From: Eubacteriales bacterium
GTDB taxonomy: Bacteria > Bacillota > Clostridia > Oscillospirales > JAAYXM01
Assembly (NCBI GenBank): GCA_045533555.1
Contig: JAZSHZ010000315.1
Location: 1-43,588 of the forward strand
Length of the DNA: 43,588 nt
Direction of reading: 5' to 3'
Within the stretch, counting starts at the first letter, position 1; each line of letters begins with the position of its first letter. Shown here in pieces: positions 15,183 through 35,270 of this stretch. A program made the translations under genes and the position numbers. The notes under the pieces were generated by a model. The model saw only the letters and a program-made list of their open reading frames with translations, had not been told where the DNA came from and ran no database searches.

Positions 15183-16469
15183 TTATTCGCGCGGCATTTC
15201 AACCGATTTTGCGATTTCTTCCGTTATGCGCAGAAATTCATCAATATCCTCTGTGCCGTGACAGTGGAGAGGTGAAACTCTGATTGCAGCGCGAAGATTG
15301 AGCGAGGCAAGAATGCGCTTTGAATATATGCTTTCGGGGCATCTGTCGCAGACAGTGACGCCTCGCCGCGCATATTCCGCAGTACATTCGGCAAAGTCAA
15401 TTCCATCGATTGCAATAGCTGAAATGAGATCGCGACCTGTTATATCCTCGGTATCAAGGTATACGGTGACGCCGTTTATGCGGCGAAGACCTTCGAGCAT
15501 TCTGTGGAGAAGTGCACGTTCATGAAGGTGAATGCGGCGCATTCCCTCAAGAAAAAGCTCTCTTGCGGAATCTGAAGAAACGAAATGCGCGCCGATATCA
15601 CAGACATAGTTTATGATTTCAAGGGCTGCGGCGAAGTTTGCAGGTGCGCTTGTTCCAAGTGCAAAGACGGATTGCTTTTTTGCGCAAAGCTTGTGGTGAG
15701 GAAGCTTTGCAACTCTTTCGGAGACATATGCAAAGCCACAACCGCGTATGCCGAAAAACTTATAAGGTGCAAAATTCATTCCGTCAATACCAAGCTGATC
15801 AACATCGAGTGCACAATGCGGTGCATGCTGAACTGCATCGGAGATTATATAGAGTTCGGGTTTCTTTGCTCTTGCTTTTCTCACGATTGCTCCGATATCC
15901 ATAATATTTCCTGAAATATTTGATGCGGACATAACGCTTAAGAGGCAGGTGCCGTCGTCGATATATTCCGCAACTGTATCGGAATCTATGCCGCCCGTCT
16001 TCGGGTTTGCAGGAATAACGCGCATCTCCTTGCCGGTTTTTTTGCAATAGAATTCAATTGCATCAAATGCGGAAGGATGCTCAAGCGAGGAAACGACCGC
16101 GTTTTTGCCCGGGATATTCTCCATAATGATCCCGACCATATGAAACATAGCTTGTGATGCCGTAAGCTCTGTTATGAGTGAGCCGCTCTTTGCACCGAAT
16201 ATGACCTCAAGGATCTCTTTCTCGCCGCGTTCGACAAAGGAACGGAGAAAGTTTGCCCGTTCATAGCTTCTTTCAGGGCAATCGGGAAAAGCTTCAAGCC
16301 TTGCTTTTGCCTCAACACAGCTTTTAAGGCGAAGGCTTCCGCCTGAGTTTTCGAAAAAAAGTCTCTTGCCGAGGGACGGATCGGAATCCGCATAATAAAA
16401 CTTCTCTTTCAATTCCTTTTGAAATCCGCTTTCGAAAAGGAGTCCGTTCGGATAATTCATAATAATCAC
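15183..16469 (-). CDS. Class V aminotransferase-fold PLP-dependent enzyme
   Basis: Fold-type I pattern with a candidate PLP lysine in NFAPYKFFG. Its start overlaps the upstream gene's stop by 4 nt. Confidence 0.7.
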   Translation of the reverse strand: MIIMNYPNGLLFESGFQKELKEKFYYADSDPSLGKRLFFENSGGSLRLKSCVEAKARLEAFPDCPERSYERANFLRSFVERGEKEILEVIFGAKSGSLITELTASQAMFHMVGIIMENIPGKNAVVSSLEHPSAFDAIEFYCKKTGKEMRVIPANPKTGGIDSDTVAEYIDDGTCLLSVMSASNISGNIMDIGAIVRKARAKKPELYIISDAVQHAPHCALDVDQLGIDGMNFAPYKFFGIRGCGFAYVSERVAKLPHHKLCAKKQSVFALGTSAPANFAAALEIINYVCDIGAHFVSSDSARELFLEGMRRIHLHERALLHRMLEGLRRINGVTVYLDTEDITGRDLISAIAIDGIDFAECTAEYARRGVTVCDRCPESIYSKRILASLNLRAAIRVSPLHCHGTEDIDEFLRITEEIAKSVEMPRE

Positions 16470-17596
16470 CTCTGCGGCATCAGATTTCCGAGCTTGATAT
16501 AACGTATGGCATCTTTACCGCGCACTGCAGGGTTTCCGTTTTGGTATTCGAGAGCAAGCTCGCTTGTGCTGTATGCCATATAGATATCGTTCAAGATATC
16601 GATGATGGAGATGTTGACTATGCCGTGTTTGGAATAAAGCTCCGCAACTTTGGTGAGCTCATCTCCGTTATCGGTATCAATGAGGAAGAAGGCGACACTT
16701 GTCCGCCCCTGCTGGATTTTCGGTCTGTTACCGGTGTCATCATTGAAAATATTGCAGTTCATAAGCATGTTACCGCAATAGTTGATGATTCCGGGTCTGC
16801 ACTGAATACTCTTTTCAAAATAAACGGGCTTGCTCCATGTTTTGCCCATATCGGAGGAAACGCTGCGGAAGACGCTGTCCTTATCCTTGTCCGTTCTTCC
16901 GATTGCATAGATTTTGCCGTTTGCAAACTTATAGTCAAATTCATATTGAATCGGATACGGGCATACGGCAAAAAACTCGAGCGTTTCAAGATTATCTGCC
17001 GAACGGTATAGAATCGGCTCTGCATGCAGGCTTGTAATTGCGCCGTAGTGATAGCCGTCATCTCCCGTAAAAATTGTGTGACTGCCGAATGCGATTTGCT
17101 CCGCGCAGCAATATTTGTGATTTGTCAGCCCTGCCTCGTCAAGGTATGCAAATTGCTCCGATCCTGTAAGAGGAACGGTTTCGCCGTTTTGTTTTTTGAG
17201 CATAACCGTCTTTTCCTCGCTGAGATTTTCCGAGAGAAAATCAAAATCCTTAAAGCATATAAAATGGTCACAGTCGGCGCGGCTGTCCTTCTCATAGAAA
17301 ACGCGGACGCGGCCTTCCCCAAGGCTTATCGCATTCGGGCAATATACATCCCGGCATGTGGCTATGTCGATGAATTTTATGTTTGTCGGTTGTGATGCGG
17401 GGAAATATGAAAGTGAAATTCTTCCTCTTGATTCCCCGTAGTGTCCCTGCGGTCCGGGCATATATGCGCAGAACATAATGCCATACTTCGCATCAAAGAC
17501 AAGCTTTGCGCCGTCTGCGCTCGTGTCCGTGAACCCGTTGTTTATCTGAGCTGAAAAATTAAGAATCGGAGATACCTCTCCTTTTCGCTCTGTCAT
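16466..17596 (-). CDS. Hypothetical protein with one Asp-box (BNR/sialidase-like beta-propeller?)
   Basis: The track start is 17668. ATG 17596 has AGGAGG upstream. One S-x-D-x-G-x-T-W Asp-box (SSDMGKTW). No signal peptide. The function is not assignable. Confidence 0.6.
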   Translation of the reverse strand: MTERKGEVSPILNFSAQINNGFTDTSADGAKLVFDAKYGIMFCAYMPGPQGHYGESRGRISLSYFPASQPTNIKFIDIATCRDVYCPNAISLGEGRVRVFYEKDSRADCDHFICFKDFDFLSENLSEEKTVMLKKQNGETVPLTGSEQFAYLDEAGLTNHKYCCAEQIAFGSHTIFTGDDGYHYGAITSLHAEPILYRSADNLETLEFFAVCPYPIQYEFDYKFANGKIYAIGRTDKDKDSVFRSVSSDMGKTWSKPVYFEKSIQCRPGIINYCGNMLMNCNIFNDDTGNRPKIQQGRTSVAFFLIDTDNGDELTKVAELYSKHGIVNISIIDILNDIYMAYSTSELALEYQNGNPAVRGKDAIRYIKLGNLMPQR

Positions 17597-17667
17597 AAAA
17601 TCGACCTCCTTTCTCTCATTATAATTGAGTGATTTGGAAATATAAAGCGCTATATTTGCAAAAAACA

Positions 17668-17696
17668 TTGAAAATCCTGCAAATATATATTATCAT
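17668..17696 (+). promoter_or_regulatory. Candidate promoter giving a leaderless araC-family mRNA
   Basis: TTGAAA (17668-17673), 17-nt spacer, TATCAT (17691-17696). The ATG lies at 17703, 6 nt after the -10 box, with no SD sequence. Confidence 0.4.
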
Positions 17697-19784: not shown

Positions 19785-19796
19785 TGACAAACACAA

Positions 19797-19829
19797 AAAA
19801 GACTGTTGCGACCGCAACAGTCTTTTTTG
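19797..19829. terminator. Bidirectional terminator between the MFS and TIR genes
   Basis: GACTGTTGCG-ac-CGCAACAGTC flanked by A6 and T6. Confidence 0.8.
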
Positions 19830-19851
19830 TGATTATGCAGAAAAATCAATG

Positions 19852-21666
19852 CTATTTCAGCTTGATGTTGCCGTTTTTGTCCTTTGTATATGACACCTTC
19901 AACGGAATTGTAGTTATTTCGTTGTCGCCATAGGAGGTAAACGAATGAAGAATAAAATCATCGCCAACGAAGGTGTGCGTATAGAAAAAGTCATAAGGAG
20001 CCCAAAAATCATCACATTGATATAAAACCTGACCGTTGAGGTCGGTGATTGTTATCAGGTCTACTGTTTCTTCTCCGGAAACCAGGGTATCCCAGATACA
20101 CAAATCAAGCTTTTGGGAATAATGCATTGTGTGTGGTATCCAACCGAACAACGGATTTGAGAGGAAAAACTCAGGCCCGAGCAATTCTTCGGATTCCTGC
20201 GTGGCAAGATCGATCGATCTCAGGGTTCCGTCGTTATATAAAAGCAAACGGTTTTCTTTGTCAAAAGCAACGCAATATTTTCCGATGAGCTTCTTGCTGA
20301 ACATATTTTCTCCTGTTTGCAGATCCCATACGGTAATTTCAGTGCAGTCGGCTGCGTTTTCGTTGCGCTTATATGCTTTCTCCCTGATAATATATTTGCC
20401 GTTCGAGCTGATTGTTTGAATGTCTTTATTTATATAAGGCATATAGCTTTCATAGATCTCTTCGCAGTCGTCTTCGGTCATAGCCCCCGTCAGCAGATCG
20501 AAGATTGCGGGAGCTCCGTCAAGCGTCCATGCAAGTATGGGAGCACCCGATGCTTTGATTGCAGGGTCAAATCCGCAGACTATGTCGGTTATATTCAACT
20601 CCGAAAAATTTGTTTCCGCAATTTCGCCGTCAGCTGTCAGTCGGATAATCCTGCTGTAACAACCGCCGTTCTTTTCATAGTCAAATACCATAAAGAATAT
20701 GTCATTTTCATCGATGATATTTATCTTGAGATTTTTAATACCGATGAAATACATAGGGATCGATTCCGTCTGCCCGAGTGAAAGGTCGATCCAATTTTCG
20801 CTTTTCCATTTCTGCTCTGCGATATCATAAATTTTCACCCTGCCATTGCTCAGAAAGTATACTATCTCGGAATCTTCGGTGCTGCATGCCCAGACAGAAT
20901 CAAAATCTGTTTCACCGAGGGCTATTTCTTCATTTGGGTGAATGAGCTTTCCGGTGCTCGTATCAATGCTTGAGAGGTTTTGGGTTTTTGTGTTTTTCAT
21001 GAAAAACATATTTCTTTTTGCGGAAAAGCCATTCAGATCACGGAAGGGATACATAAGGTTTTCTGCGTTGGAGAGATTGACGAACGGGATTTTTTGACAT
21101 GTGCTGTCATTATCCGTCACGAGGCTTCCGTATAGCCCGAAAAACAAGGCAACCGTCAGCGCCACTGCCGCAATTATGATCCCGGCCTTTTTTTTGAACA
21201 AACCGGGTCTCTTGCCGCTATGGCTTTCCGATTCTTCCGTTTCGGCAGAGACTTCGTTTTTTGAATATCCGCAGGCATCGGAAACGCTTTTTAAAAGCTT
21301 TTGGGTTTCGAGTGAAGATTCATCAAGCTGCTTTATTGCGATAATCTGATCCGAACTGACATAAAGTTCGAACTCGTCATTAAGAACCATATCCTCCAGT
21401 TTAACGGGAATAATCATTTTTTTATAGTTGATTGCCCGTTCGATTTCTTTCGGCACCCATGGAGAATTCTGGGCAGCGTCGGAAAGAAGCAGAATAACGC
21501 AGTCACATTTTTTAATTGCCGAGTTGATTACTTCAGCATATTTTTTTCCGACAGGAATATCGTTAGGAGCCATCCAGGAGGCTATTTTGTTTTTCTCAAG
21601 CAACCGCTTCGTGGAATCTGCCATTGATTGGTTTGCGGTGCTGTAGCTGATAAAAGCATATCCCAT
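19852..21666 (-). CDS. TIR-domain protein with a single TM helix and a large C-terminal WD40-like/propeller-like domain
   Basis: GGGAG RBS. Residues 2-115 are TIR_2-like (YAFISYS, CVILLLS, SPWVPKEIERA, IIPVKLE). KRPGLFKKK is followed by 23 hydrophobic residues (161-183). The C-terminal 420 aa carry recurring h-[YWF]-D-h-x-x-G/Q motifs (KIYDIAEQ, AIFDLLTG, TVWDLQTGE, CIWDTLVSGE). Confidence 0.8.
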   Translation of the reverse strand: MGYAFISYSTANQSMADSTKRLLEKNKIASWMAPNDIPVGKKYAEVINSAIKKCDCVILLLSDAAQNSPWVPKEIERAINYKKMIIPVKLEDMVLNDEFELYVSSDQIIAIKQLDESSLETQKLLKSVSDACGYSKNEVSAETEESESHSGKRPGLFKKKAGIIIAAVALTVALFFGLYGSLVTDNDSTCQKIPFVNLSNAENLMYPFRDLNGFSAKRNMFFMKNTKTQNLSSIDTSTGKLIHPNEEIALGETDFDSVWACSTEDSEIVYFLSNGRVKIYDIAEQKWKSENWIDLSLGQTESIPMYFIGIKNLKINIIDENDIFFMVFDYEKNGGCYSRIIRLTADGEIAETNFSELNITDIVCGFDPAIKASGAPILAWTLDGAPAIFDLLTGAMTEDDCEEIYESYMPYINKDIQTISSNGKYIIREKAYKRNENAADCTEITVWDLQTGENMFSKKLIGKYCVAFDKENRLLLYNDGTLRSIDLATQESEELLGPEFFLSNPLFGWIPHTMHYSQKLDLCIWDTLVSGEETVDLITITDLNGQVLYQCDDFWAPYDFFYTHTFVGDDFILHSFTSYGDNEITTIPLKVSYTKDKNGNIKLK

Positions 21667-21695
21667 AACTTCATCTCCCTACAATTCTTTTCTTC

Positions 21696-21704
21696 ATTAT
21701 AGCA
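21696..21704 (-). promoter_or_regulatory. Extended -10 promoter (TGcTATAAT) of the TIR gene
   Basis: The reverse complement of 21696-21704 reads TGCTATAAT, about 30 nt upstream of ATG 21666 and directly after the upstream gene's terminator. Confidence 0.5.
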
Positions 21705-21710
21705 TAGAAA

Positions 21711-21744
21711 AGAAAAAAATAACAGAGACAAATTTGCCTCTGTT
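21711..21744 (-). terminator. Terminator of the small ORF, separating it from the TIR gene
   Basis: Minus strand AACAGAG-gcaaatttgt-CTCTGTT followed by ATTTTTTTCTTTTC. Confidence 0.6.
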
Positions 21745-21772
21745 AATGAAGTATGCTGTTGCCTGATGCAGA

Positions 21773-22033
21773 TTATCTGCCGTTTATGAGCCAGTATGCA
21801 ACCTGATTCAAAACATCCTGGTCGGATATAGCGTTGTTATTGTTGTAGAGTTCATTCATCCACTGACTTGCATTGGCATATCCCGTCTGCGACAGTGATT
21901 GTCCTTGCGATGCAAAATAATTTTGCAAAGCCTGCATAAGATTGGCTTTTCTTGGGCTCATAACAAGCGTGCCGCCCTGGCCTCCGAAATTGACTTTGTA
22001 TTCATCCCCGATAAACTGAAAATTCATTTTCAT
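21773..22033 (-). CDS. Small hypothetical protein (86 aa), no recognisable family
   Basis: The track gives 22090. ATG 22033 (MKMNFQ...) is preceded by GAGAGGGG. Gln/Asn-rich, with no TM segment and no signal peptide. Confidence 0.5.
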   Translation of the reverse strand: MKMNFQFIGDEYKVNFGGQGGTLVMSPRKANLMQALQNYFASQGQSLSQTGYANASQWMNELYNNNNAISDQDVLNQVAYWLINGR

Positions 22034-22155
22034 GATGTTGACCCCTCTCTGTATTGATATCCTGATGTGCAAACTTGGATTATGTAGCAATTATGACACC
22101 TATTTGCGAAAAAGTCAATATATTTCCGGAGTTTTTGTATAAAAAATACAAAATG

Positions 22156-23061
22156 TCAGGTTGTGCCTGATTGTTCGTCCCGTGCATGGCACTTTGGAAG
22201 TCTCTTTTTCTTCCCTTCCCATTGCGAGAGAAGGATCGCGATGAAGATTATCGCAAATCCGATGACCATGCGGAGCGTTATCTGCTCGCGGTATATGATG
22301 ACGGAAAAGATAACTCCGAAAATCGATTCGAGACTTAAGAGCATTCCGCCGATCGCAGGCTCTGCATATTTGAGACCGAAGCTCTGGAGAAAGAGGCAGA
22401 GCGCCGTCGCAATGAAGCCGAGATATGCGATTCCGCCAATCGCCTCAAGGGGAAATTGCGTTGGGAAACCGCCTCCGAGGAAGACGAAAACCCATGCAAG
22501 AATCGCAACGACCCAGAGCTCAATCGTCGTCAGGAGAAGAACGTTTCTGTTCCGGCAGACGATCGCGGAGATGACTATGTTGATTGCGGAGGGAATTCCG
22601 CTCACGACTGTCAGGATATCTCCCGTGGTCATACCCCATCCGCCCGAGAGTGAAAGAATGCCGACACCCGCAAGGCAGAGGAAAACACACGCGATATGAT
22701 GAGGTTTGGGTCTGTCCTTCGTTATCATCCAATATATAAAAGGAACAAGGACGCTATATGTCGTGCAGAGAAATGCGCTTTTCCCGGGCGAGGTATCAAG
22801 CGTCAGTCCGCCGACCTGAAGCATATATGCCGCGAAGAGGGAAATTCCCATCAGCAGTCCGTCTGCGAAATATTTCTTATCGAGCTGCTTTCTCTGCGGA
22901 TATGACGCGATGAGAAGAACAACTGCGGCAATCAGGAATCGCGATGCGACGATAAACGAAGCGGTAAATGATTCCGAAGCGATTTTTCCGATGGTGAAGG
23001 TGCTTCCCCAAAGCGCCGCGGTCATAAATAACGCGATTTTTGCAACCAATGATTTTTTCAT
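22156..23061 (-). CDS. DMT-superfamily (EamA-like) transporter
   Basis: About ten hydrophobic helices in a two-EamA-repeat layout. AAGGAG RBS. Confidence 0.8.
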   Translation of the reverse strand: MKKSLVAKIALFMTAALWGSTFTIGKIASESFTASFIVASRFLIAAVVLLIASYPQRKQLDKKYFADGLLMGISLFAAYMLQVGGLTLDTSPGKSAFLCTTYSVLVPFIYWMITKDRPKPHHIACVFLCLAGVGILSLSGGWGMTTGDILTVVSGIPSAINIVISAIVCRNRNVLLLTTIELWVVAILAWVFVFLGGGFPTQFPLEAIGGIAYLGFIATALCLFLQSFGLKYAEPAIGGMLLSLESIFGVIFSVIIYREQITLRMVIGFAIIFIAILLSQWEGKKKRLPKCHARDEQSGTT

Positions 23062-23099
23062 TTAAAGAAAACTCCTTGATAAGTAAACGGAGCTTTCCG

Positions 23100-23948
23100 T
23101 CATCGCGGAAGCTCGATATCTCCGTTTTCACGAATCCAGTTGCGGAGCCAGATATCATTCTTCATACCCGGCGCCATAACCGCGTTGGTAACGAAAATCA
23201 TGCCCTCGATCGTGCCGTCAAGGAGCCATTTCTTTCCGCGCTCGCACTGGAATTTCATCTGCTCTGTCGTGAGCGGGAAGCTTCGGAAATAGTCGAAAAG
23301 ATAAGCGCCGAGATATATCTTCTTTCCGGGGAAGGTCTTTTTTGCCTCCTCGATAACCGAATCGAGCTTTTCAAGGTCGAGTGCATTCCAGGTATAGATT
23401 GCAACTCCGTCTATATCTTCATAAATGTCGCCGTCATCCTTCAATGCCTCGTGGGGATACCAGGTGACGAGAAGGTCCATATGGCGTGAGCAGGTGTCGA
23501 GCTTTTTGCGGATTCCGGAGACGAATTCCTTCGCCATTTTCGCGCGCTCATTTTCCGGATATGTCCAGAATTGACCGAGCGGGTCGTCCATATAGCAGCC
23601 GCAGAGATTCGGGTATTCTTCGTGCTTTGAGATAACATAGTCTTCTTCTCTGCCGTCGCGATATCCCGCGCTTCCCGTTGAGGACCACATAACGCGGTCG
23701 AGCGGGAGGAAGGAATAGAGATATTTATCCGCATACTGGGAGAAAGGAGATGGGATTCCGTCACAGCAGACCATGATCACGTTTGGAATATCGAGGAAGA
23801 GCGCAGCTTCCGCAGGCGTCATCGAGGAACCTGTGGAAGGGAAGTTGTTCGGATCGTCCTCCTTGCGATGGCGCACCCATCCGCCGACGTGTGTGTCGTT
23901 TTCGTGGGCAGGAACGCCGAAAAGCCAAAGTGCATCTCTCAGTTTCAT
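23100..23948 (-). CDS. Hypothetical cytoplasmic protein (282 aa)
   Basis: The track gives 24065. ATG 23948 has AAAGGAG upstream. No family recognised; possibly a TIM-barrel hydrolase-like protein, but that is a guess. Confidence 0.6.
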   Translation of the reverse strand: MKLRDALWLFGVPAHENDTHVGGWVRHRKEDDPNNFPSTGSSMTPAEAALFLDIPNVIMVCCDGIPSPFSQYADKYLYSFLPLDRVMWSSTGSAGYRDGREEDYVISKHEEYPNLCGCYMDDPLGQFWTYPENERAKMAKEFVSGIRKKLDTCSRHMDLLVTWYPHEALKDDGDIYEDIDGVAIYTWNALDLEKLDSVIEEAKKTFPGKKIYLGAYLFDYFRSFPLTTEQMKFQCERGKKWLLDGTIEGMIFVTNAVMAPGMKNDIWLRNWIRENGDIELPR

Positions 23949-24070
23949 ATGCTTTATCTCCTTTTGATTTATTATTAAATGATTATTTAACAGTATAGCA
24001 TATTCTCCCAAAAAAGAAAAGGAATTGTTTTCTGATAATGTTCTTTCGATTTGAATTTCTGCCAACAGTC

Positions 24071-24489: not shown

Positions 24490-24675
24490 TTAGTATGACT
24501 GTACTAACTCTAAAAATTCAACTGGCGTTGTAACAACGTCAATCGTACCTCCATTCTCATCAAAGAATTCAACCTCAAAGTATTTTCCATCGTACTCCAA
24601 AACGATAGTTCCGGTCGTACCAGCCGACAAATCGCTAAATTCACTCTTCAATCTTACAACATCTAATTCTTTCAT
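24490..24675 (-). CDS. Small 61-aa protein, DUF4926-like
   Basis: The pattern ELDVVRL...GTTGTIVLEYDGKYFEVEFFDENGGTIDVVT resembles DUF4926 from memory. It lies 21 nt downstream of the 396-aa gene and has a weak SD. Confidence 0.65.
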   Translation of the reverse strand: MKELDVVRLKSEFSDLSAGTTGTIVLEYDGKYFEVEFFDENGGTIDVVTTPVEFLELVQSY

Positions 24676-24696
24676 AGTATCAATCTTTCTTGTGGT

Positions 24697-25887
24697 TCAT
24701 ATAGCGGTTTTTAGTCCATAGAAGCTGAGCGCGTTTTTATTATAAAGCATAGTGACAGGTTTGTTTGATAAGTGGTTAATCATTCCGATATGTTCAGCAA
24801 TCGGAATAAGTCCACTATCCTTACACTGGATAAAGAATGCAAGAGTTTTTTTCAACTGCTTCTTTTCGGAATCGGTGATTGAATCACCCACACTGATTAA
24901 AAACTCGTCAACGGGACCATTTTTAATAACAGGAATTTTGCCGATGAAGTTACCAACCGAGCGAGAGACATCAGCAAATTTGTTAGCGGCTTGTGTTGTT
25001 ATTGCATCTTTCTTCAAGTCTTCAATCTTGTCGAAGCACTCTGTGTAAAGATTGCGGAACTTCATAGCGTGTCCTCTGATTTCGTCCTCTATCTTTGAAA
25101 GATACGCTTCTTGAAAATTTTTTGAGAGCATTATCTCCATATACTCAGATAATGCAAAAACGTGAAGTGCCAATTTGTAATGAACGAAGCGGTCGAGAAT
25201 TTGACCAATCTTGTAAGAGGCAGATTGTATCTTCAACAGATTTTTCTTGGCGGAGAGAAGTTCTTCGATTTGCTCAATGTAAGAACGCAAGTCCTTCATA
25301 GCGTTTCGCTTTATGTTCTTTACTTGGTTGAGATTGACCACGAGGCTCGCTTCATTCTCCCAATAGAATTTATATTCATCCATATAAGATGATAGTAAAT
25401 CATAGTCAGCGAGAAGTTGCGATTTCTTGTCTCGCTCAAGTATGCCAATAATTTCTTTCTGCCCGTCCTTGATGTCTTGTACTTGCTTAACTACCGCAAG
25501 AACAGCGACGGCAACCAATGTTGCTTTGAGACAAGCGGGACCGATAGCTTTATCAACGGGAATCCATCGCGCCTGCCCGGCAATACCGTTGTTCATAATC
25601 GTTCCTAACGCACCGGATCCGTCCTTAGCCATAGCAAGTGTGCCGGTAACTCCTTTAGGGAAAACACAACGATATAGTCCCTCTGCAGCAGGTGTAGCCA
25701 TCGTTTCTACGACCCCTGCAAAAGCCCCGCCGAGAGCTGCAATCTCTGTGAACGGAATTTTTGCAAGCGGTGAGGTTAAGTAATTGTCCTTAATTTCATC
25801 AAGAGCGTGTTCTACTTGTACGCTCGATCTCAAACTTTTACCCGATTCGGAAAGATCGTTCAAGACAAACAATTCGTTGTTATCCAT
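24697..25887 (-). CDS. Hypothetical 396-aa protein: Gly/Ala-rich N-terminal region, one hydrophobic segment, long helical C-terminal part
   Basis: AGGAGG RBS and its own promoter. Hydrophobic stretch ACLKATLVAVAVLAVVKQV. The remainder is Lys/Glu/Leu-rich and helical-looking. No family recognised. Confidence 0.75.
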   Translation of the reverse strand: MDNNELFVLNDLSESGKSLRSSVQVEHALDEIKDNYLTSPLAKIPFTEIAALGGAFAGVVETMATPAAEGLYRCVFPKGVTGTLAMAKDGSGALGTIMNNGIAGQARWIPVDKAIGPACLKATLVAVAVLAVVKQVQDIKDGQKEIIGILERDKKSQLLADYDLLSSYMDEYKFYWENEASLVVNLNQVKNIKRNAMKDLRSYIEQIEELLSAKKNLLKIQSASYKIGQILDRFVHYKLALHVFALSEYMEIMLSKNFQEAYLSKIEDEIRGHAMKFRNLYTECFDKIEDLKKDAITTQAANKFADVSRSVGNFIGKIPVIKNGPVDEFLISVGDSITDSEKKQLKKTLAFFIQCKDSGLIPIAEHIGMINHLSNKPVTMLYNKNALSFYGLKTAI

Positions 25888-31124: not shown

Positions 31125-32489
31125 TTATATAACTTTTTTCTCAAGCCACTTGCCGTTTCGGAGTCGTACTGTTGAGAATGCGGCACAGATGAGATGGTTT
31201 GCACCCATTCCTATCCACATGCCGAGGACTCCTGTTTTGAGCAATATGGAAAAGACATATGAAAGAACAACGCGCCCCATAAACATTCCGATAAGGGATG
31301 CGCTGACGGCATATTTCGTGTCGCCGGATGCCCGGAATGATGAAAGCGGGATGAATGCGCGTGCATAGAATGTAGTCATCGTGAAGAGAGATGCATACAG
31401 AAGTTGTTTTGCACATTCTGAAAGCAGGCTCTCATCGAGACCATAGAGCGAGACCAATTGATAGCGGAAGATTATGAGAAGTGAGAAGAGCGCAATTGTT
31501 GCTATATTTGCATAGCGCATGAATTTTTTCGTATATATTTTTGCCTGCTCGGTTTCTCCTGCACCGATGCACTGCCCGACAACGGTCATAACAACGACCT
31601 GCAAGGCAGAAAGTATACTCCATGCGATTCCGCCTATCTTGCAGGTTATGGAGCATACCGTTACGGCGGCGGTGCCGATGGATGCAAGCATCATTGAGAT
31701 GAGAATCGAGCCAAACTGATTCAGGCCTCCTTCAATTCCGTTTGCGATGCCGATACCCGTGACTCTTTTCAGAATATCCTTTTCAAAGCGGATTTTCCAG
31801 AGTTTTGTGAGGTATATCGGAGATTCGCGGTTTCGAAGGACGAGAATGCCGAGTATGCAATAGACAACGCGTGAAAGAGTTGTTGAAATAGCGGCACCTG
31901 CAACACCCATGTCAAAGACATAGATGAAAATGGCGTTTCCGATCGCGTTGAGGATATTGACAGTACCTGCGATATAGAGAGCGAGCTTCATATCTGCCTG
32001 GGAGCGGAGCATCGTCGCGCAGACGTTTCCGACCGAATAGACGGGAAATCCCAGAAGGATCCAGAAGAAATATGTCTTGCAATGAGCGAAGACCAAGGGG
32101 TCAAGCTCGCCATAGACGAACTTTATGGCAGGTGACGTGAAGATGAGCAGAAGCGCCATGATGATTGCGGAATAGAGCGTTGAGATATAGAGCGTTTGCT
32201 TTGCCGCCTTTCGCGCGCTTTCAAAATCACCCCGACCGATATACTGCGCCGCCACGACTCCGCCGCCTGCAGCTATTGAATTCTGAATAAGCATGAAGAA
32301 GGAGAGAATCGTGTCCGCAAGGGAAACGGCGCTGACGGCTTCGCTTCCCGCTGTCGCAACCATGATCGAGTCGACGAGACCGACCGTCATAAAAAGAAGC
32401 GCATCGATAACGACCGGGATAGCAAGAGAGATAAGCTGGCCGTTTGAAAACATTGGATTTGAAATTTTCGGTGAAAGAGTCTTTGTCAT
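31125..32489 (-). CDS. MATE-family efflux transporter (paralog 1)
   Basis: 12-TM pattern. Shares the motifs AGSEAVSAVSL, DMGVAGAAISTTL, VGQCIGAG, ASGDTKYA with the two upstream genes. Confidence 0.85.
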   Translation of the reverse strand: MTKTLSPKISNPMFSNGQLISLAIPVVIDALLFMTVGLVDSIMVATAGSEAVSAVSLADTILSFFMLIQNSIAAGGGVVAAQYIGRGDFESARKAAKQTLYISTLYSAIIMALLLIFTSPAIKFVYGELDPLVFAHCKTYFFWILLGFPVYSVGNVCATMLRSQADMKLALYIAGTVNILNAIGNAIFIYVFDMGVAGAAISTTLSRVVYCILGILVLRNRESPIYLTKLWKIRFEKDILKRVTGIGIANGIEGGLNQFGSILISMMLASIGTAAVTVCSITCKIGGIAWSILSALQVVVMTVVGQCIGAGETEQAKIYTKKFMRYANIATIALFSLLIIFRYQLVSLYGLDESLLSECAKQLLYASLFTMTTFYARAFIPLSSFRASGDTKYAVSASLIGMFMGRVVLSYVFSILLKTGVLGMWIGMGANHLICAAFSTVRLRNGKWLEKKVI

Positions 32490-32540
32490 ATTTCCAAAAC
32501 CTCCGCAAAAGCCTTCCCCGCAAGGAGGAAGGCTTTAAGC

Positions 32541-33905
32541 TTATATAACCTTTTTGTTGAGCCATTTGCCGCTTCTGTAGCGGATGATATTGAATATAGT
32601 TCTGCAGAACCAGTCGCCCCACATACCTATCCAGATGCCGATGAGCCCCATATTGAAGAAGCGGCCGAGAAGATAGGAGAAGCCGACGCGGAAGGTGAAC
32701 ATACTTGCAACCGCGAGAATGACGGCATATTTCGTGTCGCCCGCGGCGCGGTATGCAGCAACGGGGACGAATGACCATGAATATACCGAGGCGATCGTCA
32801 GAAGCGCGCCCGCACCCGTTATATATGCCGAATACTCAAGCGCCTCCTCCGAGAAATCGAAGATGGAGACGAGCTGATGGCGTAGGATGAAGACGATTCC
32901 GAAGAGGACGACCGTGAGAATGATGCAGAAATTGCAGATTTTTTTCGTATACATCTTTGCCTGATCCTTCTCCTGCGCGCCCATACATTGACCGACGACC
33001 GTGAGAAGAACCGTTCCGAAGGCTCCGACGGTTGACCAGCCGATGTTGCAGAGCGTGTTTGCGACGGAGTGCGCCGCGATGGCAATCGTTCCGAAGGAAG
33101 CGACAAGGCTTGAAACGAGAAGCTTTCCCGCCTGGAAAAGCCCGTTCTCAAGTCCGTTTGCACCGCCGATTGTAAGAACTCTTTTGAGTATATCCCAATC
33201 GGGGCGGTATTTAAGCAGCCCTTTGAAGTGGACCGTGAGGCTTTTGTTGTGGAGAATGATGAGACCGCCGACCGCCCAGACGAATCTTGCCAAGGTCGTT
33301 GAAATGGCGGCGCCTGCAACGCCCATATCAAGACCGTAGATAAGAATGGCGTTGCCGATAACGTTGAGAATGTTTATCAAGCCCGCAAGGAAAAGCGCAA
33401 GCGTGCTCTTTGCCTGCGCGCGCAGGAGCGCTGCGGAGGATGAGCCTATCGCGAAGAAGGGATAGCCGAGAAGCGTCCAGAAGAAATAGGTCTTTGCGTT
33501 CTCGAAAACATCCGCCTCGATTTTTCCGAAGACGAGCGTTATGGACTGAGGAATAAAGCAGAGGAGAATCGCCATAAGGACTGCCGCAATCGCGGTTGAG
33601 GCGACGAGAAGCTGATTTGCGCTCTGCTTCGCCTTTTCTATATTGCCGCTTCCGATATATTGAGAGGTGACGACGACACCGCCCGTTGTGACCGCATTGA
33701 ATATGAGGATGAACATAAGGTTCAATGAGTCAACGAGCGAAATGCCCGAAACCGCGGCTTCGCCTGCGCTTGAGACCATTGCCGAGTCGACGATACCTGC
33801 AGCAATTGCGAGAAGCGCATCAAAGACTATCGGAAGGGCGAGAGCGACGAGCTGTCTGCCCGAAAACATAGGCTCGGATATTCTTGGTGTGTTTGTTTTG
33901 TTCAT
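32541..33905 (-). CDS. MATE-family efflux transporter (paralog 2)
   Basis: Same motif set as paralog 1. Ends in GKWLNKKVI. Confidence 0.85.
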   Translation of the reverse strand: MNKTNTPRISEPMFSGRQLVALALPIVFDALLAIAAGIVDSAMVSSAGEAAVSGISLVDSLNLMFILIFNAVTTGGVVVTSQYIGSGNIEKAKQSANQLLVASTAIAAVLMAILLCFIPQSITLVFGKIEADVFENAKTYFFWTLLGYPFFAIGSSSAALLRAQAKSTLALFLAGLINILNVIGNAILIYGLDMGVAGAAISTTLARFVWAVGGLIILHNKSLTVHFKGLLKYRPDWDILKRVLTIGGANGLENGLFQAGKLLVSSLVASFGTIAIAAHSVANTLCNIGWSTVGAFGTVLLTVVGQCMGAQEKDQAKMYTKKICNFCIILTVVLFGIVFILRHQLVSIFDFSEEALEYSAYITGAGALLTIASVYSWSFVPVAAYRAAGDTKYAVILAVASMFTFRVGFSYLLGRFFNMGLIGIWIGMWGDWFCRTIFNIIRYRSGKWLNKKVI

Positions 33906-33914
33906 AAAAATTAC

Positions 33915-35270
33915 CTATATAACTTTTTTCTTCATCCATTTACCGCGATGGAAATGTATTCTGTTTATTATGGAGCGCGAGAACCAGTCTGCCCACATAC
34001 CTATCCAGACGGCAAGAAGCCCCATATCGAAGAGATAGTTCAGGAGATATGAAAGCCCTACGCGGAAGGTAAACATCGTGCTTACCGCGAGAACAACGGC
34101 ATATTTCGTATCGCCTGCCGCGCGGAAGGTTGACATGGGAAGGAATGACCAGGAGTAGCCTGCTATGATTGTGAAAAGAGATGCCACTCCGGTATAGTAT
34201 GCGGCTTCGCGGAGAGCCTCCGCCTCAAAATCAAAGAGGAGGACAAGCTGATTCCGCAAGAGGAATATCGCGCCGAAAAGGAGGACCACGCCGACAGTTG
34301 CCGCCCGCATCATTTTCTTTGAATAAAGCTTTGCCTGATCGGGCTTTCCCGCACCCATACATTGACCGACAACGGGGAGAAGTGCCGTGGAGAATGCGCC
34401 GATGGTTGACCAGCCTATGTTGGTGATTGCGGAAGCAACGGAGTTTGCGGCGATGGCGATTGTTCCGAGCGAGGAAACAAGGCTTGCGACAAGGACCTTT
34501 CCCAGCTGGAAGAGACCTTGCTCGATACCGTTTCCTCCGCCGATTATGCAGACCCGCTTCATCATATCGCGGTCAATGGAGAATCTGCAAAGATTCTCAA
34601 AGCGAACCTTCATATGATGATCGTGCATTATCCATACTCCCGCAACTGAGAAAACCACGCGCGAAAGAGATGTGGATATAGCCGCGCCTGCAACTCCCAT
34701 ATCGAAGCCGTAGATAAGAATTGCATTTCCGATAACGTTCAAGATATTGTAGCCTGAGGTGAGGGAAACGGAAAGCTTGTTCTTGCCCATTGAGCGCATA
34801 AGCGCGGTGCATCCGTTTCCTACCGCGAGGAACGGATAGCCGAGCAATATATAGAAGAAATAGTCGCGCGCATTCCGAAAAACATCTTCTTCGATTCCGC
34901 CATATACGAGATTCAGTATCTGCGGAATGAAGCAGAGCAAAAGCGCAGTCATGGCAAGTGAAGTGAAAAGCAAAAGGTAAAAGACCTGATTTGCGGAGCG
35001 GTTCGCCTTCTGCATATCGCCTCTTCCGATGTATTGCGAGGTGACGACAACGCCGCCTATCGCAAGCGCGTTGAAAAGCGTGACGAAAAGGAGATTGAGA
35101 GAATCGACGAGCGATACGCCCGAAACTGCCGCCTCACCTGCACTCGATACCATGGCCGAATCGACGAGACCTGCCGCAATGACAAGAAGCGCATCGAGAA
35201 TAAGCGGTATCGTAAGGTTTACAAGATCGCGGTTTGTAAACATAGGTTTTTCGGAAAGAGTTTTATCCAT
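33915..35270 (-). CDS. MATE-family efflux transporter (paralog 3)
   Basis: Same motif set as paralog 1. There is a 9-nt gap to paralog 2. Confidence 0.85.
   Translation of the reverse strand: MDKTLSEKPMFTNRDLVNLTIPLILDALLVIAAGLVDSAMVSSAGEAAVSGVSLVDSLNLLFVTLFNALAIGGVVVTSQYIGRGDMQKANRSANQVFYLLLFTSLAMTALLLCFIPQILNLVYGGIEEDVFRNARDYFFYILLGYPFLAVGNGCTALMRSMGKNKLSVSLTSGYNILNVIGNAILIYGFDMGVAGAAISTSLSRVVFSVAGVWIMHDHHMKVRFENLCRFSIDRDMMKRVCIIGGGNGIEQGLFQLGKVLVASLVSSLGTIAIAANSVASAITNIGWSTIGAFSTALLPVVGQCMGAGKPDQAKLYSKKMMRAATVGVVLLFGAIFLLRNQLVLLFDFEAEALREAAYYTGVASLFTIIAGYSWSFLPMSTFRAAGDTKYAVVLAVSTMFTFRVGLSYLLNYLFDMGLLAVWIGMWADWFSRSIINRIHFHRGKWMKKKVI

Follow-up and report, generated by a model that had tools for sequence, protein, structure and literature searches.

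Introduction

Anti-phage effectors with a TIR domain include Thoeris ThsB, the CBASS effectors TIR-SAVED and TIR-STING, Pycsar TIR, TIR-APAZ/SPARTA, Cat1, and TIR-STAND/Avs-like proteins. These effectors reside in the cytoplasm, where they detect nucleotides, nucleic acids, or proteins of phages, and most of them need partner genes (ThsA, cyclase, Argonaute, or CRISPR). TIR enzymes must self-associate to build a composite active site around a conserved glutamate, and the glycine of the BB-loop is needed for self-association. To our knowledge, all characterized bacterial TIR systems sense their trigger inside the cell. Phage defense and signaling of gut Oscillospiraceae are, as far as we know, almost unstudied. 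Mycobacterium tuberculosis PknD consists of a kinase, a transmembrane (TM) helix, and an NHL propeller. Multicellular bacteria and giant viruses encode soluble TIR-WD40 and TIR-NTPase-WD40 proteins (see PMC7159879).

The present analysis concerned a stretch of DNA of 43,588 nucleotides, called the window, and one protein encoded in it. The protein combined an N-terminal TIR domain, a single TM helix, and a C-terminal β-propeller.

Results and Discussion

Gene Organization and Family

The open reading frame occupied 19852..21666 on the minus strand, where all elements described below also lie. It started with ATG and encoded 604 amino acids followed by a stop codon, with a TIR domain, a linker, a TM helix, and a β-propeller in this order. 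The predicted 604-aa ORF was a gene under selection, because its dN/dS was 0.21 (at dS of about 1) relative to the syntenic orthologue L001. It was monocistronic. An RBS, AGGGAG (21675..21680, 8 nt 5′ of the ATG), and an extended −10 element, TGCTATAAT (21696..21704), were read off the sequence. The original prediction had assigned the gene its own promoter and RBS. Both motifs were visible, but the promoter was absent from the consensus-scan list, and no good −35 hexamer was seen by eye upstream of it. A terminator-like hairpin with a T-run (21720..21745) divided the gene from an upstream 87-aa ORF (21773-22036). An 18-bp terminator-like hairpin (19792..19831) was located just 3′ of the stop codon, between the TIR gene and a convergent MFS gene.

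The gene had also been described as far more AT-rich than its surroundings. The direction was correct and the size was overstated: the G+C content was 42.6%, compared with 49.2% across the window. Among windows of equal size, the gene fell within the lowest 6%, and a nearby AraC-type gene was similar (43.4%). A recount of positions 20401-20460 gave 19 G+C instead of 18. The AT-richness was real but modest.

An exhaustive HMMER search was used for the family census; a word-indexed search with the ectodomain profile recovered few members. About 30 cluster representatives at 50% identity had the same layout, all from Oscillospiraceae-type gut Clostridia. The clusters were rare and patchy, and most were seen on a single contig. 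All full-length ectodomain carriers had the TIR domain in front, and 29 of 30 also had the TM helix. The remaining HMMER family matches were short fragments, and weak matches below the E=1e-10 level were generic WD40 repeat proteins. A scan of a genome collection by full-length alignment with a TIR-motif pattern gave 79 loci, among which only L003 and L004 were family members. Most of these loci were unrelated TIR proteins because the chosen pattern was a TIR motif.

TIR Domain

The TIR domain covered residues 1-132 (21271..21666). Pfam TIR_2 (PF13676) matched residues 5-112 with E=1.9e-18 and 67.6 bits, against a curated gathering score of 28, in agreement with the TIR_2 assignment made earlier. 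The ThsB_TIR and TIR models likewise exceeded their cut-offs, and TIR_2 matched 30/30 family members. The AlphaFold model showed β strands alternating with helices, with pLDDT mostly about 82-94 and 73 at residues 31-40. A PDB profile search with the domain matched TIR-STING, Cat1, Roq1, SARM1, and AbTIR, and the TIR domains of TLR6, TLR1, and TLR2 were detectable relatives.

Glu74 (codon 21445..21447) was part of the sequence WVPKEIERA (W70-x-x-x-E74). As predicted, it occupied the place that the catalytic Glu takes in NAD-cleaving TIR domains. In the PDB profile search, it was aligned to the second Glu of Roq1 WCLEEL and to the Glu of Cat1 DELEQA. It was also aligned to the Glu of WVHKEIVTA in a human SARM1 TIR sequence. 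The Glu residues aligned to E74 in Roq1 and SARM1 are E86 and E642, which we take to be catalytic. E74 was invariant throughout the family (30/30 members) and throughout the TIR clade to which the domain belongs (120/120 proteins). Gly40 (codon 21547..21549) of the BB-loop (DIPVGKK) was invariant in both sets and was aligned to the Gly of SARM1 EAGK. By its Glu position and BB-loop Gly, the TIR domain fits the NAD-cleaving subset and is a putative NADase.

Linker, Membrane Helix, and Topology

Residues 133-160 (21187..21270) formed a linker that varied more within the family than any other region and ended in the Lys/Arg cluster KRPGLFKKK. Its pLDDT in the AlphaFold model was 35-38, which indicated a disordered, flexible segment. 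The cluster was followed by the helix AGIIIAAVALTVALFFGLYGSLV (residues 161-183; 21118..21186) and then by TDNDS. With a Kyte-Doolittle value of 2.37, this was the only segment of the protein above the threshold, and AlphaFold placed a helix at residues 162-179, consistent with the single TM helix predicted.

Across the family, the 15 residues ahead of the helix contained on average 5.4 Lys/Arg vs. 1.4 after it, and the positive-inside rule was satisfied in 27/28 members. The protein has no N-terminal signal peptide, since the TIR domain begins at residue 2. Hydropathy, the positive-inside rule, and AlphaFold thus supported well a predicted single-pass type II (N-in) protein with the TIR domain inside and the propeller outside. 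The proposed arrangement, in which a single TM helix separates a cytoplasmic TIR domain from a large extracytoplasmic repeat domain, was common to the family.

C-Terminal Domain

The extracytoplasmic domain consisted of residues 184-604 (19855..21117). It was strongly acidic, with 66 Asp and Glu vs. 35 Lys and Arg. AlphaFold modeled this domain alone with pLDDT 87 and pTM 0.85 and predicted an all-β structure of 28 strands, corresponding to 7-8 blades. Foldseek matched solely β-propellers, with E of about 1e-9 and TM-scores of 0.52 or lower. The model thus assigned a β-propeller fold to the domain with confidence. WD40-like strand endings had been noticed in the sequence, and RVKIYD, PAIFD, CTEITVWD, and LCIWD were indeed located at the ends of predicted strands.

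The propeller subfamily was also considered. No WD40-type repeat or propeller model of Pfam matched the protein at E≤0.01. WD40/Kelch-type models gave weak single matches (E of about 0.005-0.01), each in 1/30 family members, and phmmer gave weak matches to WD40 proteins (E from 1e-11 to 1e-3). Assignment to WD40, PQQ, NHL, YVTN, or RCC1 propellers had no sequence-level support in the Pfam scans of 30 members, and the TM-scores did not exceed 0.52.

The structural neighbors included the periplasmic propellers QHNDH β subunit, NirN, BamB, TolB, and PedH. The periplasmic sensor of BT4663, a Bacteroides hybrid two-component system, ranked 49th in Foldseek with a TM-score of 0.25.

Conservation and Relatives of the TIR Domain

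The TIR domain was the most conserved part of the protein (column entropy 1.57 bits), followed by the ectodomain (2.43) and the linker (2.70). Against the L001 orthologue, dN/dS was lowest in the TIR domain (0.10), intermediate in the ectodomain (0.20), and highest in the linker and TM helix (0.48). Judged from these sequence comparisons, the pattern is that of a constant effector with an apparently diversifying sensor. Positive selection on the ectodomain was not evident. Its dN/dS of 0.20, at a dS of about 1.1 that is near saturation, was only about twice the value of its neighbors and far below 1.

The TIR domain was 55-68% identical to TIR domains fused to kinase, FtsK, Sel1, LRR, and tubulin-like domains. 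The kinases were Ser/Thr (Hanks-type) kinases with FHA domains. The same group included other domains placed behind a helix, namely an RCC1 propeller (P0116) and DUF6273 (P0086), and some members of the TIR clade had bundles of 4-6 TM helices without an ectodomain. Identity to the TIR domains of most other family members was just 25-32%. The TIR domain therefore behaves like an output module that can be exchanged between different sensor parts. A broader unrecognized class of receptors in gut Clostridia may share the order TIR, helix, and ectodomain, with ectodomains that replace one another (propeller, RCC1 propeller, and DUF6273). The fusions suggest that modular TIR proteins of gut Oscillospiraceae form a large repertoire that is still unexplored.

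Proposed Function

The protein is tentatively best explained as an outside-in transmembrane receptor in which ligand-driven clustering switches on a TIR NADase. The acidic propeller would be the ligand-binding part outside the cytoplasmic membrane. The single helix would cross the membrane, and the flexible basic tether of roughly 30 residues would keep the TIR domain beneath it. A multivalent or surface-bound ligand would cluster the propellers and let the tethered TIR domains meet. A phage particle or receptor-binding protein is one candidate ligand; others are a fragment of the wall and a molecule carried by another cell. The assembled TIR domains would cleave NAD+, and the outcome may be NAD+ depletion with growth arrest or abortive infection, or the release of an ADP-ribose-derived signal.

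If this explanation holds, NAD+-based signaling or suicide could be triggered from the cell surface, and an outside-in branch would be added to bacterial TIR biology. The protein would also offer a one-gene model of TIR-enzyme activation by clustering, a step common to TLRs, SARM1, and plant TNLs.

Genomic Context and Biological Role

Nine distinct contexts, the window and eight others, were compared. The neighbors were housekeeping genes in every context and varied between contexts, and every locus was monocistronic. No defense gene, conserved partner, or defense island was seen in the nine contexts. The gene always either has a promoter and terminator of its own or lies among unrelated neighbors, so it must act alone or with unlinked partners. 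In L001, the one informative relative at this locus, the gene occupied the same place as in the window, and P0123 was found in one GroEL/EF-G/ABC context in three assemblies. A metagenome scan with EamA at the EamA-MFS locus yielded just two contigs, each about 1.5 kb long and belonging to species that are more distant. tblastn searches of phage and plasmid collections with the ectodomain gave no match, which speaks against its being carried by sequenced phages or plasmids. The window also encodes an SLH-domain protein of the S-layer type.

The upstream 87-aa ORF was rejected as a partner. A terminator separated it from the TIR gene, and besides the window it adjoined the gene only in L001. 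It was missing from all other family loci, and its homologues adjoined PolA, a group II intron, or unrelated genes.

The original prediction had proposed a single-gene, envelope-sensing abortive-infection system and had held that a conserved housekeeping context of the homologues would count against it. The contexts were housekeeping yet not conserved, because they vary. No direct evidence supported the proposal, with housekeeping neighbors, no defense genes in nine contexts, and a stable locus under purifying selection. The absence of recognizable defense genes from all nine contexts (0/9) is evidence against a conflict role. The stability of the locus at a dS of about 1 and the purifying selection also speak against it, although they fit a physiological as well as an immune gene.

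A housekeeping receptor with the same architecture and activation is a possible, if somewhat unlikely, alternative. It would answer a cue from the cell itself or its environment, such as the state of the cell wall or S-layer, the presence of a nutrient or glycan, or a signal for sporulation or germination. The response would be an ADP-ribose-derived messenger or the recruitment of a partner, without killing. The housekeeping neighbors, the stable locus with its low dN/dS, and the constant context of P0123 support this alternative. It is also supported by the sister TIR fusions (FHA Ser/Thr kinases, FtsK, and tubulin-like), which are typical of cell-cycle and signaling proteins. Extracytoplasmic propellers serve as sensors in ordinary signaling, as in BT4663, which was a weak structural match here. 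However, no messenger receiver was linked to the gene, the family is rare and patchy with only about 30 clusters at 50% identity, and the ectodomain and linker vary much more than would be expected if the receptor recognized a conserved self ligand. Furthermore, we know of no characterized bacterial TIR enzyme that acts outside conflict systems. A conflict role, with sensing of phages or competitors at the cell surface, is considered somewhat more likely than routine physiology. The more specific idea of a bacterial cell-surface innate immune receptor is unlikely as it stands. Such a receptor would sense a phage, a competitor surface, or a toxin before genome entry and respond through a TIR NADase, as a convergent counterpart of TLRs.

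Role of the Ectodomain

A reading in which the propeller does not sense a ligand is doubtful. The membrane-tethered TIR domain would then answer either a membrane or envelope perturbation, by way of the helix and linker, or an unlinked cytoplasmic trigger, and the propeller would be a wall or S-layer anchor, or an extracellular enzyme or binding module. An anchor could draw on the SLH-domain protein, since its presence in the window means that a wall-associated layer probably exists for the acidic ectodomain. An enzyme would agree with the enzyme-associated propellers among the structural neighbors (DPP8/9, QHNDH β subunit, PedH, and NirN), and the TIR-clade members with 4-6 TM bundles dispense with an ectodomain altogether. 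However, no catalytic motif or Pfam enzyme family was detectable in the ectodomain by Pfam scans, and most of its nearly invariant residues were aromatic, Gly, or Asp, a kind that points to a structural role. The propeller was strictly paired with the TIR domain and TM helix, which argues that both parts function jointly.

It is very improbable that the TIR domain is a non-enzymatic interaction scaffold, or that it mimics animal TIR adaptors, as the Tcp proteins of pathogens do, in a membrane protein that modulates host immunity in the gut: the source organisms are gut bacteria and bacterial TIR proteins that interfere with TLR signaling are known (PMC7075850), but the N-terminal TIR domain is neither exposed nor secreted, because it lies on the cytoplasmic side of the membrane anchor without a signal peptide, and the invariant Glu and BB-loop Gly would be needless for a pure mimic.

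Comparison with Known Systems

PADLOC, NCBIfam, and Pfam contained no model spanning the whole protein, and the PADLOC and NCBIfam matches were confined to the TIR part. A bacterial TIR-TM-propeller protein with this receptor-like layout was not found described in the openly available literature that was searched. The view that this is not a named defense architecture was thus borne out.

The anti-phage TIR effectors likewise have a TIR_2-type domain with the Glu and the BB-loop Gly. Like the window protein, they have an N-terminal TIR domain and a variable, sensor-like remainder, and their activity is expected to depend on self-association. The window protein differs from them in that its TM helix puts the non-TIR part outside and no partner is linked. 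No Thoeris ThsA effector (SIR2-SLOG or TM-Macro) adjoined the gene in the window or the eight other contexts, and the ThsB models matched only the TIR part. L003 alone had a Macro-domain gene downstream. The Macro and HD genes were rejected as a Thoeris-like receiver; the pair is not a family feature, because it was seen only at L003. No nucleotide-sensing domain of CBASS or Pycsar (SAVED, STING, or CAP12-type) was detected, a cyclase was absent from all contexts, and the PADLOC SAVED_TIR match covered only residues 2-81, that is, the TIR domain. Pfam scans of 30 members detected no STAND, NACHT, or NB-ARC NTPase, and the TIR domain and the propeller were separated by the 28-residue linker and the TM helix.

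The soluble TIR-WD40 proteins share with the window protein a TIR domain and a WD40-like propeller in one chain. They have no TM helix and usually carry a STAND NTPase between the two parts, whereas the window protein has no NTPase and places its TIR domain and propeller on opposite sides of the membrane. Soluble cytoplasmic proteins commonly combine a TIR domain with a WD40-type propeller, so only the TM helix sets the present case apart.

PknD and BT4663-type systems resemble the window protein in having a cytoplasmic output, a TM helix, and an outside propeller as ligand sensor. Their output is a kinase or a two-component module instead of a TIR domain, and Pfam scans of 30 members detected no sequence homology of the window propeller to NHL, PQQ, or YVTN.

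TLRs and IL-1 receptors are single-pass proteins whose ectodomain, a solenoid or repeat structure, lies outside and whose TIR domain lies inside, and in them, as in the window protein, activation presumably occurs by ligand-induced approximation of the TIR domains. The resemblance to a Toll-like receptor claimed in the original prediction is sustained for the outside sensor, the TM helix, and the inside TIR domain. The polarity is opposite: the window protein has an N-terminal TIR domain and a type II anchor, and TLRs have an N-terminal ectodomain with a signal peptide. The window ectodomain is a propeller instead of LRR or Ig, with no LRR match in Pfam or Foldseek. TLR TIR domains lack the catalytic Glu, whereas the window TIR domain keeps a Glu at that position and has no adaptor proteins. 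The likeness is an analogy that points to convergence, in architecture and not by common descent.

Predicted Catalytic Features of the TIR Domain

The protein encoded by the TIR gene (19852–21666, minus strand, 604 codons) was expected to begin with a TIR_2 domain, and the Pfam search matched this model at residues 5–112 (E = 1.9e-18, 67.6 bits, cut-off 28). The ThsB_TIR and TIR models also scored above their own cut-offs. The family TIR profile matched the solved TIR structures of TIR-STING, Cat1, TLR6/1/2, Roq1, TIR-1/SARM1, AbTIR, and TIR-APAZ. In the profile alignments, E74, placed at the catalytic position by the original prediction, indeed lined up with a Glu in both Roq1 (the second one of WCLEEL) and Cat1 (that of DELEQA). 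BLASTP against the human SARM1 TIR aligned WVPKEIERA with WVHKEIVTA and VGKK with AGKF. The residues paired with E74 are known as the catalytic Glu (Roq1 E86, SARM1 E642), and the residue paired with G40 as the BB-loop Gly. E74 and G40 were invariant in all 30 full-length family members; in the TIR clade, both were kept in 120 of 120 proteins and W70 in 118 of 120. Judged by sequence, the window TIR has what an NAD-cleaving TIR requires, because of the TIR_2 match, the invariant E74 and G40, and the alignment with catalytic TIRs. The protein is a TIR superfamily member, with every sequence feature present.

Membrane Topology and Ectodomain

Residues 161–183 formed the sole hydrophobic segment, with KRPGLFKKK before and TDNDS after it. 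AlphaFold, supplied with a 30-sequence alignment, modelled residues 136–161 as disordered and 162–179 as a helix. One TM helix was found at the equivalent position in 29 of 30 family members, and the 15 residues before it held more Lys/Arg than those after it in 27 of 28 scored members (mean 5.4 vs. 1.4). The TIR domain of the window protein starts at residue 2, without a signal peptide. The predicted topology was supported: from the single helix, the positive charge before it, and the absent signal peptide, we infer by well-established rules a type II anchor, which would leave the TIR cytoplasmic and put the last 420 residues outside.

The mean pLDDT was 85 for the whole protein; the ectodomain alone gave a pLDDT of 87 and a pTM of 0.85 and was modelled as all-beta with about 28 strands. 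The WD40-like strand endings noticed earlier (KIYD, AIFD, TVWD, and CIWD) fell at the ends of modelled strands. Foldseek retrieved only beta-propellers for the ectodomain (E about 1e-9, identity 8–14%, TM-score ≤0.52), including WD40 proteins, DPP8/9 and NirN propellers, the QHNDH beta subunit, BamB, TolB, and PedH. BT4663, a Bacteroides hybrid two-component system, was matched weakly through its periplasmic sensor (rank 49, TM-score 0.25), and the viral library also yielded generic WD40 proteins. No Pfam repeat family was detected in the window protein. The ectodomain is strongly acidic (66 D+E vs. 35 K+R), and the model indicates a divergent propeller, either 7- or 8-bladed.

Family Census

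Queried with just the ectodomain, an exhaustive HMMER search gave 45 representatives at E ≤ 1e-3, 31 of them at E ≤ 1e-10; weaker matches than the latter were ordinary WD40 repeat proteins. Besides the window protein, 27 full-length representatives of 580–681 aa carried the ectodomain C-terminally in the same position, and other family matches were short fragments (e.g., P0121 and P0135). TIR_2 matched 30 of 30 aligned members, so the full-length ectodomain carriers have a TIR, and 29 of 30 also have a helix ahead of the ectodomain. Named sources were Oscillospiraceae and Faecousia MAGs from goat rectum and other samples. The original prediction could name no such defence architecture; likewise, PADLOC 2.0 and NCBIfam 20 models matched the TIR alone. 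Full-text searches of the accessible literature, which cannot prove absence, turned up no account of a bacterial protein with a TIR-TM-propeller layout. The architecture is real, conserved, and apparently undescribed.

Gene and Genomic Context

The extended -10 element TGCTATAAT (21704–21696) and AGGGAG 8 nt before the ATG could be read off the sequence, as expected for a gene with its own promoter and RBS. Terminator-like hairpins lie upstream, 3' of a small ORF (21745–21720, minus strand), and immediately downstream (19831–19792, minus strand); therefore, the gene is a separate transcription unit. At 42.6%, its G+C content lies below the 49.2% of the window and ranks among the lowest 6% for windows of equal size. 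The gene is thus AT-rich as first noted, but "much more" was an overstatement, as the neighbouring AraC-type gene is similarly low in G+C.

The window encodes Spo0A, SpoIVB, aromatic amino-acid biosynthesis, ArgRS, and an SLH-domain protein, which marks it as chromosomal DNA from a spore-forming member of Clostridia. The orthologue at locus L001 is 67% identical and occupies the same place, between an EamA transporter gene with the small ORF and a convergent MFS gene. The neighbours of the other family members are unrelated: SbcCD (L002), coaBC with Macro and HD genes after it (L003), GroES/GroEL/EF-G plus an ABC transporter (L004, L083–85), the his operon plus a cation-efflux gene (L082), spoIIR plus a glycosyltransferase (L086), peptidoglycan-binding genes (L087/88), and an MFS gene plus a peptidase (L090/91). 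Neither a recurrent neighbour nor a recognisable defence gene was found across the window, L001, and the other family loci compared, and the ectodomain had no match in phage and plasmid collections.

The small upstream ORF (21773–22036, minus strand, 87 aa, no family match) is 95% identical in L001, with a dS of 0.13 while flanking genes show 0.75–1.1. It was rejected as a partner, since its homologues elsewhere adjoin PolA; some of those contigs then carry a group II intron reverse transcriptase. A 258-aa TIR-only protein (L094, 1278–2054) lies about 5 kb from one homologue, probably by coincidence, TIR genes being numerous in these genomes. In L003 (6803–11401, Faecousia MAG), the family member begins 5 nt after coaBC, and a 363-aa Macro-domain gene and an HD_4 gene come next. 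This Macro protein could be a local receiver for a TIR product, because Macro domains bind ADP-ribose derivatives; such a neighbour occurred in 1 of 9 contexts.

In L001, a nucleoside-transporter gene of the Gate family (542–1879) stands between the 321-aa gene and EamA; the window (~23061–23100) lacks it, so an indel lies near the TIR locus. This 321-aa protein (23100–24065, minus strand) and a 400-aa protein (16466–17668, minus strand; BNR_2 sub-threshold) had no significant family match and border the transporter/TIR region. The window is most AT-rich at 24490–25887 (minus strand, 37–42% G+C); this stretch encodes a 396-aa protein without family match and then a 61-aa DUF4926 protein, and looks like a foreign two-gene insert. 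Three MatE efflux genes of about 451–454 aa each stand in tandem at 31125–35270 (minus strand).

Evolution and Apparent Exchange of the TIR Module

Between the window and L001, dN/dS was 0.10 for the TIR, 0.48 for the linker/TM, 0.20 for the ectodomain, 0.08 for EamA, and 0.10 for MFS. The outside part changes about twice as fast as the rest. dS was about 0.6–1.4 across the TIR gene and its EamA and MFS flanks, so the gene is old at the locus and under purifying selection. By family-wide column entropy, the TIR is the most conserved region (1.57 bits), and the linker (2.70 bits) and the ectodomain (2.43 bits) are conserved least.

TIR-clade fusions were surveyed in gut Clostridia among proteins P0004–P0120, relatives of window 21271–21666. 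The window TIR was 55–68% identical to TIRs joined to other domains (50–68% across the clade) and just 25–32% identical to TIRs of most members of its own family; therefore, the TIR behaves like an exchangeable cassette. Sister TIRs were joined to Ser/Thr kinases (some with FHA), complete FtsK motors, Sel1/TPR, LRR_5, tubulin/FtsZ-like, PRPP-synthetase, S1, vWA, and MORN domains, and bundles of 4–6 TM helices. The fusions that involve housekeeping-type domains may represent integrated decoys or else regulators. Other ectodomains behind a single helix were an RCC1 propeller (P0116), DUF6273 (P0086), and a mucin-like tract (P0093). From these sequences, TIR-helix-ectodomain appears to be no isolated accident but a design that recurs in these bacteria.

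Proposed Mechanism and Comparison with Known Systems

For the TIR-TM-propeller protein, function can only be inferred, and an outside-in receptor is the reading with the most support. The propeller would bind a ligand outside the cell, receptors would cluster within the membrane plane, and the flexibly tethered TIR domains could then meet. The assembled TIRs would cleave NAD+, with NAD+ depletion or an ADPR-derived signal as output. For SARM1, plant TNLs, AbTIR, and bacterial defence TIRs, it is established that self-association activates the enzyme. An outside-in receptor with a conflict outcome is our tentative joint reading, held at somewhat below an even chance. Counting for a conflict role are a variable sensor combined with a constant effector, the rare and patchy family, the single-gene organisation, and the roles known for bacterial TIR enzymes. 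The housekeeping neighbourhoods, the stable locus, and the sister TIRs joined to kinase, FtsK, and tubulin count against it and point instead to the same receptor mechanism serving ordinary signalling, which we consider rather unlikely. Smaller weight goes to a membrane-tethered TIR with a non-sensing propeller, and to a scaffold or host-mimic role. If the protein were indeed a surface-sensing immune receptor, it would be of much greater interest.

The window protein does not belong to Thoeris, as ThsA is absent at the TIR gene, nor to CBASS/Pycsar, whose nucleotide sensor and cyclase are absent, nor to the STAND-type TIR proteins, as the NTPase is absent. Unlike Toll-like receptors, it has reversed polarity and a non-LRR ectodomain. 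It shares its layout with bacterial transmembrane sensors bearing an outside propeller (PknD, Bacteroides HTCS), and its TIR output would, by the proposed mechanism, resemble that of oligomerisation-activated TIR effectors. By analogy, the protein would work most like a hybrid of these two.
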